Shown: positions 11,936-55,507 of the stretch, in pieces | Position numbering within the stretch: position 1 is the first letter of the stretch | Layout: each line of letters begins with the position of its first letter | Source of the DNA: Deltaproteobacteria bacterium | GTDB lineage: Bacteria > Myxococcota > Kuafuiibacteriia > Kuafuiibacteriales > Kuafuiibacteriaceae | Direction: 5' to 3' | DNA: 64,000 bases | NCBI GenBank assembly: GCA_040218735.1 | Contig: JAVJQW010000038.1 | Span: 192,001 to 256,000 of the forward strand | Program-made: the position numbers and the translations under genes | The notes under the pieces: model-generated | Told to the model about the DNA's origin: nothing | Seen by the model: only the letters and a program-made list of their open reading frames with translations | Database searches by the model: none

Positions 11936-12577
11936 TCAGAAGACAAACGTGGCTTCGCGTTCGTACGCGGTGTCCGAGTCCGTGCGCGGGAACGACAGCG
12001 TCGGGACGCGCCTGACGAGGCACCGCGCGATGCGGCGCTCCGCGAGGTTGTCGACGTCGCGGGGGCGCGCGTCGACCACCTCGCCGGTGGGGGCGATGGT
12101 CAGCGCGAGGGCGAGCGCAGACGCGTCGTCGCCGCGGCGCGCGCAGCGGTGCGGGGCGGTCCAGTCCGCGATGGCGGCGCGGAAGTCTTCGTCGGAGAGG
12201 ATGGTGGTCTGGCTTCGTTCGACGCCGACCCAGTCGCCATGCGTTCGTTCCAGGTCGACCGACGGGAGCGCGTCGTCCTTCAGCGCGACCCCGATGTCCT
12301 CGGACGCCGCATCGGTCGCGCGGGTCTTTCCGACGTCGCGTGCGTCCGGCGGCGGGAGCGTGTCGGGCGTATCCGCCGAGCTGCGCGCCGCGACACCGTC
12401 GCTCGCGGTGCGGAGGCGAGTCTGGTCGAAGTCCGCGTTGTGGATCTGCGGTGCGACGACGAGCGCGGGGCGTCGTTCACCCCAGAGGTTCCAGCTCACG
12501 AGCGCGGCGCCGAAGAACACCAGCAACCAGGTCAGGCCGGCGACGGCGTACTTCAGCGGGTGATGCGGTGTCTTCAT
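11936..12577 (-). CDS. membrane-anchored protein with AgmX/PglI- or TonB-C-like C-terminal domain
   Basis: N-terminal TM helix; C-terminal C...LTIAPTGEV...IARCL.......FP. Confidence 0.6.
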   Translation of the reverse strand: MKTPHHPLKYAVAGLTWLLVFFGAALVSWNLWGERRPALVVAPQIHNADFDQTRLRTASDGVAARSSADTPDTLPPPDARDVGKTRATDAASEDIGVALKDDALPSVDLERTHGDWVGVERSQTTILSDEDFRAAIADWTAPHRCARRGDDASALALALTIAPTGEVVDARPRDVDNLAERRIARCLVRRVPTLSFPRTDSDTAYEREATFVF

Positions 12578-46767: not shown

Positions 46768-47655
46768 ATGCGTTGGCTGCTCCTGCTCTTGGTCGCTCTG
46801 TCGTTTGCTTGCGAGGGCAAGCTCGACAAGGAGCGTTTCCGTCGTCGCGCGGAGAAGGCGTACATCGAGGTCAACTCGGGTTGGACGATCATCAAGCGCG
46901 ACCTGCACGAGACGATCTTCGTGCGCGGCGATCAGGTCGACACACTCGACGTCCAGACGATGTTCGAGGACTACGAGAAGAGCGGTCAGAAGGGGTCGGA
47001 CTATTTCGAGGCCTGGATGGCGGAGCGCAAGGCGGAGGCCGAGGCGCGCCGGCGAACGCTGGAGCAGGCCAAGTCGGAGGTCATCCCGATCATCAAGAGC
47101 GAGAAGTGGATTCGGGTGCAGGACCTCGGGGCGATCGGACCGGAGCGCATCCGCGACCAGATTCGCCCATGGCGGCAGGAGGTCGCGCCCGACGTCTTCG
47201 CGGTCCTCGGCATCCCCGAGGAGAAGCTCGGCTATCGCTTCGCCTCGATCGAAGAGGTGAAGGCGTCGAAGGTCTCGGACGACGCGTGGATGAAGATCGG
47301 CATGGAGAACGTCCGCCGCATCGTCGGTGAGCCGACCGGCCAAGAGATGCGCATGGAGGACAAACTGAAGGTCTTCGACCTGAAGAACGTCGACGGCGTC
47401 TCCGCGCTGCTGCTGGACCCGCGCTTCCGCGCGAACATGCTCGAGAAGTTCTCGCTGTCAGAGCTGGGCGCGGCGGTGCCGATCCGCAACGTGCTGATCG
47501 TGTTCGACCCGGCGGACTTCACCACGATCAAACCCATCCGCGCGCGCGCGCGGCAGCTGTATGACTCGCAGAACCACCCGGGGTTCAGGGGGTTGTTGAG
47601 GTTCGATAAGAACGTGGTGACGGTGCTGGACTCGGGGGAGGACAAGAAGAAGTAG
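46768..47655 (+). CDS. hypothetical lipoprotein (DUF1444-like)
   Basis: Lipobox SFAC; [11 protein letters not shown]. Family call tentative. Confidence 0.7.
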
Positions 47656-47662
47656 AGGGGAT

Positions 47663-47916
47663 CGGATTCGGACACGGACTCGGATTCGGTTTACGGACAC
47701 GGATTCGGTTACGGACACGGATTCGGACACGGATTCGGTTACGGACACGGATTCGGTTACGGACACGGATTCGGACACGGACACGGACACGGATTCGGAC
47801 ACGGACACGGATTCGGACACGGACACGGATTCGGTTGCGGACTCGGATTCGGATTCGGACACGGACTCGGATTCGGCTACGGACTCGGATTCGGTTACGG
47901 ACTCGGATTCGGAATC
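47663..47916. repeat. degenerate hexamer tandem array (CGGATT/CGGACA/CGGACT/CGGTTA)n, about 42 units
   Basis: Read directly; higher-order 18-mer GGATTCGGTTACGGACAC recurs. Confidence 0.97.
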
Positions 47917-47920
47917 TGCT

Positions 47921-47946
47921 GGCGGCGCCCCTCGCGGAGCGCCGCC
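47921..47946 (-). terminator. GC-rich hairpin with GCGA tetraloop downstream of four-helix-bundle gene 1
   Basis: Minus strand GGCGGCGCTCC-GCGA-GGGGCGCCGCC, 11 bp with one G-U; no U-tract, so terminator role uncertain. Confidence 0.7.
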
Positions 47947-47960
47947 GGCATGACCTTCGC

Positions 47961-48314
47961 CTAATGCGTCAGCCGATACAGCATCGCGTTAATCCTATCG
48001 ATGAGCTCCATGCTCACCGCGGCGTCCTCCGCCTTCACGTACCCCCAGGCCACCGCCACGCGCAGCGCGCAACGCACTTCGTCCGCGCTGCCCGCAGCCA
48101 CCGTGTAGTGATATGTCCTCGACCCGCCCTCCCGTCGACGCCCCTCACCGAGATTCAGCGCCACCGAGCTCGCGGCGTCCCGAATCTGCTTCGCCAAGCT
48201 CGCGTCCTTCTTTCGGATCTTGCTCACCACGTCGACGAGTTCCTCGATGAGCTCCACGCTCACCTCCAGAACGATGAACCGACCAGGAGAGGCTGCATTG
48301 TTTTTTCTGTTCAT
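47961..48314 (-). CDS. four helix bundle protein (23S rRNA IVP / Avd-like family)
   Basis: LAKQIRDAASSVALNLGEG.RR...YTVAAGSADEVRCALRVAVAWGY; 117 aa. Confidence 0.9.
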   Translation of the reverse strand: MNRKNNAASPGRFIVLEVSVELIEELVDVVSKIRKKDASLAKQIRDAASSVALNLGEGRRREGGSRTYHYTVAAGSADEVRCALRVAVAWGYVKAEDAAVSMELIDRINAMLYRLTH

Positions 48315-48479
48315 ACCTCCCCCCGGCGCAGGCGGCGTGACGAACGGCCCTCCCTTCGTTCGGTTACTTTGAGTGGAATCTATTCGGTGGCTCGGTCGTG
48401 GTGGGGAATCGGAACCATAGGCCGATCGGCACGACGGTTGCGCTGCACATAAGGGATGAACAGAAAAAACAATGCAGCC
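48291..48479. repeat. perfect 24-bp inverted repeat (48291-48314 / 48456-48479) equal to the first 8 codons of gene 1
   Basis: ATGAACAGAAAAAACAATGCAGCC on - at 48314 and on + at 48456; 141-bp spacer. Confidence 0.97.
48427..48441 (+). promoter_or_regulatory. sigma54 (-24/-12) promoter pointing away from gene 1
   Basis: CGGCACG-ACGG-TTGC versus consensus TGGCACG-N4-TTGC; 14 nt before the duplicated ATG. Confidence 0.7.
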
Positions 48480-48616
48480 GTCGGCCGGTAGCTCGGTGTG
48501 TGCACCTCAACCAAGAAGACGGAGAGAGAGTCCTCCCCTTCAATCCTGCAGAAGAAAGAACCTCTCCCGTCAAAGTGCCTTAGGGAGTTGAAACCATCCC
48601 CAGTACCACGACCCCC

Positions 48617-48739
48617 GGCCGAGTCCTTGGTTGGGTTCACACCCTTTGAGCAGCGCAACGGACGCGCCAAGGCCCGCAGACGGTCCTTGTCACGCCCCCT
48701 GCGCTGAAGGGGGGCATGAACCCAACCAAGAACTCGACC
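48617..48739. repeat. 21/24-bp inverted repeat (48617-48640 / 48716-48739) equal to the first 8 codons of gene 2
   Basis: ATGAACCCAACCAAGAACTCGACC (+) versus GTGAACCCAACCAAGGACTCGGCC (-); 75-bp spacer. Confidence 0.95.
48655..48669 (-). promoter_or_regulatory. sigma54 (-24/-12) promoter pointing away from gene 2
   Basis: Minus strand TGGCGCG-TCCG-TTGC; 14 nt before the duplicated GTG. Confidence 0.7.
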
Positions 48740-49063
48740 TACCGCTTCGTGGCGCTCGACGTGGCGCTGGAGATGATTCGTCAGCTCCGAGAGCCGCTTG
48801 CGAAGATTCGAAAGCACGATGCGGATTTGGCGAAGCAGATTCGGAAGGCGGCGGCGTCGGTGCCGTTGAACGTCGCGGAGGGGAGCCGGCGCGCGGGGGG
48901 CGATAGAGCGTATGCGTTCCGAGTTGCGCTCGGGAGCGCCGACGAAGTGCGCGCGGCGTTGCTGTGCGCGGATGCGTGGGGGTACGCGGAGGTGGACGAG
49001 GAGCTACTGGCGACGCTGGATCGCTTGATGGGGCTCATCTGGGGGCTCGGCGGTAGGCGGTAG
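48716..49063 (+). CDS. four helix bundle protein (23S rRNA IVP / Avd-like family), paralog of 47961-48314
   Basis: LAKQIRKAAASVPLNVAEG.RR...FRVALGSADEVRAALLCADAWGY; 115 aa. Confidence 0.9.
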   Translation: MNPTKNSTYRFVALDVALEMIRQLREPLAKIRKHDADLAKQIRKAAASVPLNVAEGSRRAGGDRAYAFRVALGSADEVRAALLCADAWGYAEVDEELLATLDRLMGLIWGLGGRR

Positions 49064-49065
49064 AG

Positions 49066-49107
49066 GAGGAGGCTCGGCGCCGTCGCGAGGCGGCGCCGAG
49101 CCTCTTC
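49066..49107 (+). terminator. GC-rich hairpin with GCGA tetraloop downstream of four-helix-bundle gene 2
   Basis: GAGGAGGCTCGGCGCCGTC-GCGA-GGCGGCGCCGAGCCTCTTC, 19 bp with two G-U. Confidence 0.75.
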
Positions 49108-49117
49108 GATCGCGACT

Positions 49118-49299
49118 CGGAAACGGAGACGGACTCGGATTCGGACTCGGACTCGGACTCGGACTCGGATTCGGATTCGGACTCGGATTCGGACTCGGAT
49201 TCGGATTCGGAATCGGACGCGGAATCGGAATCGGAATCGGAATCGGAATCGGAATCGGAATCGGATTCGGTAACGGATTCGGACTTGGTGTCCGAATCC
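49118..49299. repeat. degenerate hexamer tandem array (CGGACT/CGGATT/CGGAAT)n, about 28 units, ending in a hairpin
   Basis: Read directly; terminal GGATTCGGAC-TTGGT-GTCCGAATCC (49275-49299) is a perfect 10-bp stem. Confidence 0.97.
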
Positions 49300-49962
49300 C
49301 TACGAATCGATCTCCTCGCGCGCCCGCGCATCCAACAACGCGTTCAACCCCCGCGAGATCTGCTGCGGCTCGTACGTCCCCCGCGGCACGCACCGCCGAT
49401 ACACGTCACCGTTCGTCGCCGCCGTCACGGCGTCGCGGATCTCGTCGAGGGGCTCGACCACCAGCGAGTCCAGTCGTCGGGAGAAGAACACGAACACCAC
49501 GAACGCGATCAGGCCGACGGCGGCGGCGGACCAGGCGCCGGCGAGGCCGAGGCGTTGGGCTTCGGTGTCCTGTTCGCGCATGGAGCGGCGGTTGATGCCG
49601 GAGAGGGCGACGATGGCGTCGACGACGCGGCCGCGGACGGCGCGGTCGTTGGGGCGCTCGAACATCGTCTTGGCGTCGCGTTCGATCGCTTCGAGGTAGG
49701 GGCGCTCCTCCTCCTCCGTGACGTTGTTCTTGGCGCGCTCGAGCGCGCCGTCGAACTGCGTACGCCCCTCCTTGTCGAACGACTCCGTCGCGATCACCGT
49801 CAGCATCTCCTCCGCCGCGCGGATGCTGTACTCGTTCTCCGCGAGGATGCGCTCGATCGCCGGGGACATGCGGGCGAGGAGGGCGATGCCCGTGAAGACG
49901 CCCGCGAGCTGGAACACGAAGAGCGTCCCGACCGCCGCGCGGATCTCGCGGCGGACCGTCAT
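49300..49962 (-). CDS. two-TM sensor-like protein with periplasmic helical domain and HAMP, no kinase domain
   Basis: TM, then ILAENEYSIRAAEEM...NNVTEEEE, TM, HAMP (EPLDEI...GD...E...I....N.LL); coupled to trkA. Confidence 0.75.
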   Translation of the reverse strand: MTVRREIRAAVGTLFVFQLAGVFTGIALLARMSPAIERILAENEYSIRAAEEMLTVIATESFDKEGRTQFDGALERAKNNVTEEEERPYLEAIERDAKTMFERPNDRAVRGRVVDAIVALSGINRRSMREQDTEAQRLGLAGAWSAAAVGLIAFVVFVFFSRRLDSLVVEPLDEIRDAVTAATNGDVYRRCVPRGTYEPQQISRGLNALLDARAREEIDS

Positions 49963-53920: not shown

Positions 53921-55507
53921 ATGATCTTCCACTGTCCCGCCTGCTCGGCCGGGCACACGGTGCCGGTCTCGATGATCCCGAACGGCGGGATGGACATGAC
54001 CTGCCGCCGCTGCTCCGCGTCGTTCCTGGTCGACGTCGACGAGCCCGCGGTCGTCGAGGAGGAGGATCCGACGGTCGCCGCCAAGGCCGAAGCGACCGCG
54101 ATCGGGGTCGCGAACCCCTACGACGAGCTCGTCCCCGACGCCCAGCTGATCCGCCCCGGCGGCGAGCTGCTCGACCTGGACGACTCCTCCGACGACACCG
54201 AGGCCCTCGTCGCGGCCGAAGACCGCGCCCGCTCCGCCGACAAACCGACGATCCCGATCGACCACAAGCGTGTTCCGCTGGGCCCGGACGAGGTGGGCGT
54301 CGACCCGGAGATCGACAACACCCAGCGCTTCGACGTCGAGGAGGAGGACGTTCCGACCTACGAGCCGGACGTCATCGGGATGCAGGACATCGATGGCGGC
54401 GGCCTCGGCACCTCACGTCCCCCGAGCCGCCGCGCGCCGACCCCGGAGCCGCGCAAGCTGGGCGGCAGCAAACCGCCGCCCTCGTCGTCGACGACCCGGC
54501 CTCCGTTCGACCGTGACGATCTCTACGCCAAGGTCGCCTCCGGCCGCTACGAAAAGCCCGAAGCCCCACCGGAGCCGGCCTCCAACGTCCCGCGCGAACG
54601 CGCTTGGAACGAACCCTCGTCGCTGATCTTCACCGGCGCCGGATCCGACTCCGCGCTGCGACGCTTCGCCGAGTGGCTCAACCGCGCCCCGTTGCCGCTG
54701 AAGGTCGCGTTGATCGTGTTCCCGGTGACGCTGGGCCTGACGCTGGTGCTCACGGCGGGGCCGAAGCGGGGGGAGCCGGTGGACGTGGGGGCCGTGGGTT
54801 CAGTGGATTCTACTCAAACGAGCCCCAGCGAGGTTCCCGGTCCGGGTCCCGGTCCGGGTCCCGAAGCGGGCACGGGTTCGGGATCGGGCAAGGGCTCGGG
54901 CTCGGACTCGGACACGGGATCGGATTCGGACTCGGATTCGGACACGGGATCGGATTCGGGATCGGATTCGGACTCGGACTCCGGGTCGGATTCGGACACC
55001 GACGCGGACGCCGTCGCTCGTTCGCGTTCGGGACCCGGACCGGAACCGGGACCCGGACCGGGTGCCCTGCGCTTCCGCGACCCCACGGCGGCTGAGGGCC
55101 AAGCCTACATCCAAGCCCCCAACACCCGCCTCCGCGCCACCGCGGCGCCGCGCGGTCGCACCGTCGCGCGGCTCGGCGCCGGACAGCTGGTCCAGCGCTA
55201 CGATCGGCGCGGCGAGTTTGCGTTGGTGTTGGTCGCGCCGGACGGTCCGGTCGGGTTCGTCGACGAGGGGCGCCTCGGGGCGCGAAAGCCGGTCGTGGCG
55301 CTCGCCGAGGACATCGCGTTCGAGGGGTGCTCTTCGACCGGGAGCACGCTGGACGCATGCCTGTTCGCGGCGAAGCAGAAGGAGGGCGCGTGCGTCGACG
55401 GCTGTGGTGCCGACGGTGCGCGCTGTCGCGAAGCCTGTCAGATCGCGTTCGAGCGCTGCACGCGCCAGTGCCAGCCGCCGAAGCGTCGGCGGCGTCGGCG
55501 GCGTTGA
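53921..55507 (+). CDS. MJ0042-type zinc-ribbon membrane protein with SD-repeat linker, SH3-like and Cys-rich C-terminal domains
   Basis: CPAC...CRRC...F at N-terminus; acidic linker; TM; RLRATA...VARL..G; CxxxC repeats. Confidence 0.8.
   Translation: MIFHCPACSAGHTVPVSMIPNGGMDMTCRRCSASFLVDVDEPAVVEEEDPTVAAKAEATAIGVANPYDELVPDAQLIRPGGELLDLDDSSDDTEALVAAEDRARSADKPTIPIDHKRVPLGPDEVGVDPEIDNTQRFDVEEEDVPTYEPDVIGMQDIDGGGLGTSRPPSRRAPTPEPRKLGGSKPPPSSSTTRPPFDRDDLYAKVASGRYEKPEAPPEPASNVPRERAWNEPSSLIFTGAGSDSALRRFAEWLNRAPLPLKVALIVFPVTLGLTLVLTAGPKRGEPVDVGAVGSVDSTQTSPSEVPGPGPGPGPEAGTGSGSGKGSGSDSDTGSDSDSDSDTGSDSGSDSDSDSGSDSDTDADAVARSRSGPGPEPGPGPGALRFRDPTAAEGQAYIQAPNTRLRATAAPRGRTVARLGAGQLVQRYDRRGEFALVLVAPDGPVGFVDEGRLGARKPVVALAEDIAFEGCSSTGSTLDACLFAAKQKEGACVDGCGADGARCREACQIAFERCTRQCQPPKRRRRRRR
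54836..55062. repeat. in-frame (CGGATT/CGGACT/CGGACA)n array bracketed by roughly 30-36 bp inverted repeats
   Basis: 54836-54865 is the reverse complement of 55027-55062 apart from one 6-nt unit. Confidence 0.9.

Follow-up and report, generated by a model that had tools for sequence, protein, structure and literature searches.

The start codon of a small gene (gene 1) lies in one arm of a palindrome whose other arm is a mirror copy of the same start region, and a sigma54-type box accompanies each of the two copies. It is established that this mirrored start module has a common design whose arms co-vary, that its orientation is constant, and that it has spread over PF05635 and DUF559, two gene families unrelated to each other. 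As to its nature, we tentatively favor, as a reading that falls a little short of being probable, a fixed, non-inverting palindromic front end of a small-gene cassette, in which a fold-back lock would be combined with an outward sigma54-type promoter. Hereinafter, the window refers to the whole 64,000-nt stretch of DNA that was analyzed.

Mirrored start module and two-gene cassette

Perfect 24-bp inverted repeats (48291-48314 and 48456-48479) enclose 141 bp, which agrees to the base with the initial annotation of this DNA, and the whole feature at gene 1 spans 189 bp. The left repeat consists of the ATG (48314-48312) and codons 2-8 of gene 1, and the right repeat, 141 bp upstream, mirrors this start (arm identity, 24/24). 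The repeat finder also returned longer arms of 28 nt with 96% complementarity (48291-48318 and 48452-48479), and the likeness of the two start copies extends beyond the arms into both boxes. Both boxes, their 13- and 14-nt spacings and the 11-codon outward ORF had been described earlier and were all recovered exactly (Table 1). The mirror score, defined as the best inverted repeat having one arm on the start codon, was 25 for gene 1, while 400 random sites of the same genome gave a null distribution with a mean of 8.4, a standard deviation of 1.2 and a maximum of 16.

Gene 1 (47961-48314, minus strand) is arranged head-to-head with its paralogue, gene 2 (48716-49063, plus strand), with a spacer of 400 bp between them; both encode four-helix-bundle proteins (PF05635/TIGR02436), and according to the repeat finder the locus is palindromic at three scales. 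The mirror at gene 2 scored 17 against the null maximum of 16, and its arm sequence is very unlike that of gene 1. A third, direct 10-nt copy of codons 3-6 of gene 2 (CAACCAAGAA) was present at 48508-48517, 215 nt upstream of gene 2.

Table 1. Coordinates of the cassette features in the window.
Feature	Position	Strand	Score or support
Gene 1, four-helix-bundle protein, 117 aa	47961..48314	-	PF05635 E 2.8e-15, TIGR02436 E 3.1e-15
Hairpin 1, 3' arm: bases just before the ATG, ATG 48314-48312 and codons 2-8 of gene 1	48291..48318	-	unchanged in three genomic copies
Mirror copy (decoy) of the gene 1 start: ATG at 48456, 11-codon ORF MNRKNNAAVGR, then stop; 5' arm of hairpin 1 on the gene-sense strand	48452..48479	+	
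A1, gene-facing box CGTCACG-N4-CTGC, 13 nt, then ATG of gene 1; GT replaces the -24 GG	48328..48342	-	
B1, outward box CGGCACG-N4-TTGC, 14 nt, then decoy ATG 48456; directed at gene 2	48427..48441	+	
Gene 2, paralogue of gene 1 (49% identity) in head-to-head arrangement, 115 aa	48716..49063	+	PF05635 E 2.4e-12; BLASTP 9e-35
Hairpin 2, 5' arm; read on the minus strand, it mirrors the start of gene 2, with GTG at 48640-48638	48617..48644	+	mirror score 17
Hairpin 2, 3' arm: ATG 48716 and codons 2-8 of gene 2	48712..48739	+	
A2, gene-facing box GTCACG-N3-CCTGCGC ahead of gene 2	48689..48704	+	
B2, outward box TGGCGCG-N4-TTGC, 14 nt, then decoy GTG; directed at gene 1	48655..48669	-	
Small hairpin at the center, between B1 and B2; resembles a terminator when read on the minus strand	48521..48538	.	
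GC-rich hairpin directly past the stop of gene 1	47917..47950	-	
GC-rich hairpin directly past the stop of gene 2	49072..49103	+	
Left hexamer array (CGGANN)n, cassette boundary	47659..47913	+	
Right hexamer array (CGGANN)n, oriented like the left array	49117..49283	+	

The genome (11.6 Mb, 69% G+C, 70 contigs) contains the two-gene cassette three times: the window copy and two copies split across contig ends (C13/C43 and C33/C70). The spacer is 90-94% identical among the three copies. All four arms are unchanged in them except for one base, in the upstream arm of gene 2 in C70, and a compensatory double change (48660 with 48697) was found between copies within the genome. No arm variant was present among the 40 listed differences from four sequencing runs. 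The ends of C13 and C43 and the starts of C33 and C70 all break off within the cassette and have 96 nt in common (window 48220-48315), which makes it ambiguous how the left and right halves pair in the two split copies. These breaks were considered as a sign of inversion and rejected, because the 96-nt stretch is common to the copies and the breaks are repeat-induced.

The cassette sits between convergent host protein genes, with a (CGGANN)n array on either side. Arrays of this type were found 33 times genome-wide, including three in the window (47659-47913, 49117-49283, and 54868-55009). Several of them form back-to-back inverted pairs without a gene between (C27, C43, C61, C66 near contig position 162300), which look like hairpins of the cassette family that lack a gene.

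Distribution, consensus and covariation of the module

Genes of the PF05635 family were detected in seven of 20 genomes of the order, with counts of up to 80, 23, 14, and 10 matches per genome. The start-codon mirror is a feature of a sub-group, being present at three of 30 other PF05635 loci (L023 in G010, score 23; L043 and L036 in G015, scores 26 and 23), while the remaining loci scored 10 or less. Between this genome (G000) and G015 the gene-facing box is about 88% identical, and the proteins are just 23-24% identical. In 401 genomes of the phylum, the gene-facing box followed by a G-run and ATG was found only in G000 (six sites, all of them cassette copies), G015 (three sites) and G254 (one site), and the reversed control pattern had no match in the same 401 genomes. 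A DNA search of 41 relatives with the intergenic region returned just one 39-nt piece, in G015, and a profile search of genome contigs with a four-sequence alignment returned three G010 loci and no others.

A metagenome scan with the pattern of the gene-facing box matched at least 121 stretches, of which 80 were taken for analysis. The ORF after the box belonged to PF05635 (21) or DUF559 (11) in 32 of these 80, counts that overstate independence in that the sequences are related, the 11 DUF559 loci being close kin and several of them adjoining a tRNA gene. Assignment to DUF559 was made by Pfam (E 4.6e-27 and 7e-25). At least 170 nt of upstream sequence was available for 27 of the 32 family loci, and 24 of the 27 had a mirror score of at least 12 and 20 of at least 17. 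Five of the other 48 stretches scored at least 12, four of them with cut-short, family-like N-termini. The module occurs in many environmental bacteria. In most metagenome loci the 5' arm ends about 84-88 nt ahead of the ATG, every arm sequence is different, and similarity among the DUF559 loci ends within about 6 nt of the outer end of the 5' arm. The upstream host gene had the same orientation in four loci and the opposite orientation in three, with 12 undecided. In viral contigs the pattern matched eight times; no match had a mirror (the best score was 9) or preceded a family gene.

Several DUF559 cassettes with the module adjoin tRNA genes (L084, with the tRNA at 50-123, L088, and L141), and several DUF559 loci have a conserved tRNA-end-like motif at 50-70 nt from the hairpin on its outward side; these tRNA-adjoining loci may be orthologous sites instead of separate insertions. 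Short-period low-complexity arrays were present outward of the hairpin in L072, L102, L120, L133, L137, and L144. The last of these is the closest relative of the genes in the window, and its flanking array is also of the (CGGANN)n type.

An alignment of 33 modules gave, on the gene-sense strand, the following consensus layout: 5' arm, CATG; GCGCACG-nnn-CGCGCCAGC; variable apex; GCTGTCACG-nnn-CCTGCGC; G-run, ATG, and 3' arm. On the opposite strand, the left block reads CTGGCGCG-nnn-CGTGCGC. The outward copy (GGC...TGCGC, i.e., GG-N10-GC) and the gene-facing copy (GTCA.G...CCTGCGC, with GT) were each found in 33/33 modules and form invariant columns. The RNAalifold consensus of these sequences contained 37 pairs, 28 of which were changed on both sides; outer-arm pairing is partly by construction, as loci were picked by arm score, and the double-change pairs include the spacer triplet and the inner stem, neither of which was used in the choice of loci. 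The complement of the start region is thus kept upstream by covariation, as is characteristic of a 5' fold-back structure. The predicted folds of four modules had free energies of -100.3 (z -6.2), -83.3 (z -6.8), -126.5 (z -6.6), and -81.1 (z -9.6) kcal/mol; in each of the four, the stem includes the start codon and the codons that follow it.

Covariation was almost purely of the Watson-Crick type, with 0-1 G-U intermediates or one-sided changes per pair, and the gene-sense strand was more stable than the antisense strand in just six of 31 loci. An RNA-type signature, that is, G-U intermediates and a favored sense strand, was looked for in the modules and was not found. Since G-U intermediates are few and the sense strand is not favored, gene-sense RNA does not stand out as the molecule under selection, and what maintains the palindrome may act at the DNA level. 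On the sense strand, outer-arm mismatches comprised 24 A-C versus one G-U. This excess was considered as a strand signal and rejected, because it diminishes when the mismatches are looked at singly: among 39 arm mismatches, 10 lie on the decoy start codon and seven fall at a single position common to related DUF559 loci, and 28 have C in the 5' arm, which fits GC drift of a non-coding arm.

Rfam searches of window positions 47500-49500 (E up to 1) returned just sub-threshold miRNA hairpin models, in the array, and no rRNA; in six metagenome loci they returned one tRNA and one sub-threshold miRNA model, with the module itself unmatched. The module is therefore absent from Rfam, and it has a built-in asymmetry, the hallmarks of sigma54 promoters being confined to the outward copy. 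No description of such a module was found in an abstract-level literature search.

Sigma54-type boxes and orientation of the segment

The motif GGCACG-N4-TTGC occurs 35 times in the genome and is followed by ATG 13, 14, and 15 nt later in six, 13, and two cases, respectively; over the whole genome, its reversed control had no ATG at 13-15 nt. The looser form GGC[AG]CG-N4-[TCG]TGC with an ATG exactly 14 nt later was found 56 times, versus two at a control spacing of 20, and 47 of the 56 precede an ORF of at least 80 aa. Across the whole genome, the GT form showed no excess at 14 nt (14 versus eight at the control). The genome encodes one rpoN and 90 Sigma54_activat domain matches. The combination of -24 GG and -12 GC, 10 nt apart, is present in B1, B2 and 33/33 modules, while the gene-facing boxes carry GT and lack it. 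Judging from these sequence patterns, the outward box is plausibly a sigma54-type promoter. The promoter reading proposed in the initial annotation is thus supported for the outward box by sequence statistics; the box reported ahead of the gene at 12577 (minus strand) does show the same spacing (TGGATCGTGCCTTGC, 14 nt, ATG).

Boxes B1 and B2 combine TTGC with a spacing of 14 nt, and 28 metagenome modules have GTGC or CTGC with 9-12 nt; the form found in B1 and B2 looks like tuning to this host at the sequence level. The predicted fold of the outward RNA from B1 was not unusual in structure (z 0.58). In the predicted fold of the outward RNA from B2, the third copy CAACCAAGAA pairs with the decoy end.

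Transcriptionally silent sigma54 binding sites are reported alongside sigma54 promoters (PMC4591121). The outward box resembles such promoters in GG-N10-GC and in TGC at -14 to -12, and the host has rpoN and activator domains; it differs from them in being paired with a mirror copy bearing GT, and RpoN binding is here predicted from sequence. Sigma54-type boxes at a fixed 14 nt (13-15) before ATG were observed genome-wide, e.g., at 12577 (minus strand) and 48427-48458 (plus strand). A box 14 nt before the ATG implies 5' leaders of just about 2-3 nt for this whole gene class, which gives a separate lead on near-leaderless sigma54 transcripts.

One of the options in the initial annotation was that the segment between the 24-bp repeats is an invertible promoter switch (phase variation). 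Inverted repeats do flank a promoter-like box, and inversion would set the canonical box before the gene. However, the GT box adjoins the gene in all nine genomic copies (three of gene 1, three of gene 2 and three in G015). Among 31 metagenome modules, 25 had the family gene on the GT side and none had it on the opposite side, with six undecidable, and a flipped module would match the search pattern where the decoy keeps its ATG, i.e., at 18 of the 31 loci. The contigs of four runs from four studies contained no strand-change joints, a comparison in which rare variants would be dropped, and a contig of run X4 covers 48145-48480 with the same orientation as the window. The arm sequence differs at every locus, so the arms share no common recombinase site; the loop measures just 39 nt in G010 and 67 nt at gene 2, and 13 of 31 loci no longer have an ATG in the decoy. 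Among seven neighboring ORFs, Pfam identified no recombinase or transposase (NlpC/P60 and TrkH were found). With one orientation at every locus where it could be determined and with locus-specific arms, the proposed switch found no support, and we regard it as highly improbable.

Invertible promoters include fimS and the invertons of Bacteroides and Clostridioides. The module shares with these the inverted repeats around a promoter-like element, but it is found in one orientation everywhere examined, its arms are locus-specific and lie within coding sequence, and no recombinase was identified in its vicinity. For PhaseFinder-type scans, this carries the caution that inverted repeats flanking a promoter can be fixed palindromes.

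Candidate explanations and comparison with known systems

The module is an imperfect palindrome of about 120-190 bp, with outer arms formed by the start codon with about eight codons and by their upstream mirror, and with a conserved, mirrored pair of sigma54-type boxes inside. Under the fixed fold-back reading that we tentatively prefer, a read-through transcript spanning both arms would form a very stable hairpin burying the start codon and first codons, and with the start buried the cassette gene would stay untranslated from foreign or read-through RNA. The gene-facing box would then be a conserved, disabled copy (GT for the -24 GG). The outward box, with -24 GG, -12 GC and the host-typical TTGC plus 14 nt, probably fires away from its own gene, and in this head-to-head pair the only canonical boxes directed at the two genes are those of the partner, B1 toward gene 2 and B2 toward gene 1. 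Of the three options listed in the initial annotation (inversion, an outward RNA mimicking the mRNA 5' end, and a leader folding back over the start codon), we rank the fold-back leader first. Against the lock, the loops of G010 (39 nt) and gene 2 (67 nt) fit no internal promoter beyond the disabled box, which leaves the route of gene expression unexplained by the lock model.

A role at the DNA level is a serious rival to an RNA-only reading. By analogy with REP/REPIN, IS200/IS605 and attC elements, the palindrome might fold as single-stranded DNA or a cruciform and serve as a recognition end for copying or moving the cassette, with any RNA effect as a by-product, an explanation that we consider rather unlikely but worth retaining. 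It would account for Watson-Crick-only covariation and for three fixed asymmetries in the conserved core, as expected of a hairpin read by a protein. It is also in line with the presence of one module in front of two unrelated gene families, with the three cassette copies in this genome and the amplification of PF05635 in relatives (up to 80 matches per genome), and with the end of DUF559 similarity about 6 nt from the outer end of the 5' arm. However, no transposase or recombinase is linked among the seven neighboring ORFs, and neither the identity of the arm with the first codons of the gene itself nor the retention of GG solely in the outward box is explained by it. Another possibility is that transcription from the outward sigma54 promoter yields an RNA that begins with about 25 nt identical to the 5' coding end of the gene, and that this RNA would open the lock by pairing with the 5' arm of a read-through leader or would mimic the mRNA. 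The outward box fits the promoter class of the host with its start at the decoy, arm identity at gene 1 is complete, and the outward boxes B1 and B2 converge on the central hairpin; nevertheless, the structure of the B1 RNA is unremarkable, the outward ORFs are short and not conserved, the decoy start codon is frequently lost (13/31) and outward spacing varies between hosts, and we consider such an RNA improbable. The more specific idea of a sigma54-gated lock and key on a mobile cassette, with the outward RNA pairing with the 5' arm and freeing the start codon, is likewise doubtful in our judgment; if it were true, the head-to-head cassettes here would unlock, or drive, each other. Finally, the locus might be a relic of nested inverted duplications of a promoter-start segment, functionless now and kept alike through gene conversion. 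Palindromes at three scales are consistent with this origin, and the mismatches (C in 28/39) resemble GC-biased decay of a non-coding copy. The relic explanation is nonetheless of low probability, given that the gene-facing box is far better conserved between G000 and G015 (about 88%) than the proteins (23-24%), that the geometry is constant across two families (at most loci, about 84-88 nt lie between the end of the 5' arm and the ATG), and that even the copies of this one genome differ by compensatory double changes (48660 with 48697).

The fold-back inhibition of IS10 and IS50 shields these insertion sequences from outside transcription. In IS200, the tnpA 5'UTR is reported to form a stem-loop and to be accompanied by the antisense RNA art200 (PMC4513863). 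As in these elements, the start region of a selfish gene is paired with an upstream complement, and an outward or antisense promoter lies opposite the leader. Unlike in them, the module has as its upstream arm a copy of the coding start, 24-30 nt in length, its stem is much longer (at least 50 pairs) and contains a mirrored pair of sigma54-type boxes, and the cargo gene does not encode a transposase. The module may accordingly be viewed as a start-codon-occluding palindrome at the front of a selfish cassette, the occlusion principle being already known and the mirrored sigma54-box module being newly described.

The module resembles REP/REPIN elements (PMC3116915) in being a multi-copy, palindromic, GC-rich intergenic element. 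It differs from them in that it carries or overlaps a protein gene, that no RAYT-type partner was seen and that its core is unrelated.

The cassettes of both gene families that carry the module are selfish-looking and appear mobile, and the common co-varying front end links PF05635 and DUF559 members to one cassette biology. We take PF05635 to be the "23S rRNA intervening-sequence protein" or Avd family, and DUF559 to be a Vsr-like nuclease; to our knowledge, both are very large families with roles known solely in a few special cases. The S23p IVS of Coxiella burnetii is reported to be an ORF-bearing intervening sequence of 23S rRNA (PMC4990558). With IVS elements of this kind, the cassette shares a PF05635 protein in hairpin-forming DNA and short-period repeat arrays in the flanks. 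In contrast to them, it lies outside any rRNA gene (no rRNA by Rfam), between convergent protein genes, and its hairpin is located at the 5' end of the ORF and holds the start instead of enclosing the ORF. The two arrays flanking the cassette are also direct and not inverted repeats.

Repeats containing PF05635 genes were also observed in two relatives. In G003, which has 23 PF05635 matches, a repeat unit consists of a terminal inverted repeat with (TGGACC)n, an ATG and the PF05635 gene, and (AGGTCC)n with the inverted terminal repeat. The gene thus lies within a long hairpin of inverted hexamer arrays, one of which touches the start codon, and the copies L041, L046, L051, and L056 are near-identical. 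In G006, a genome of 10 Mb, PF05635 was matched 80 times; an in-frame TAG or TAA is present in at least 13 of these matches, and many copies are therefore decaying.
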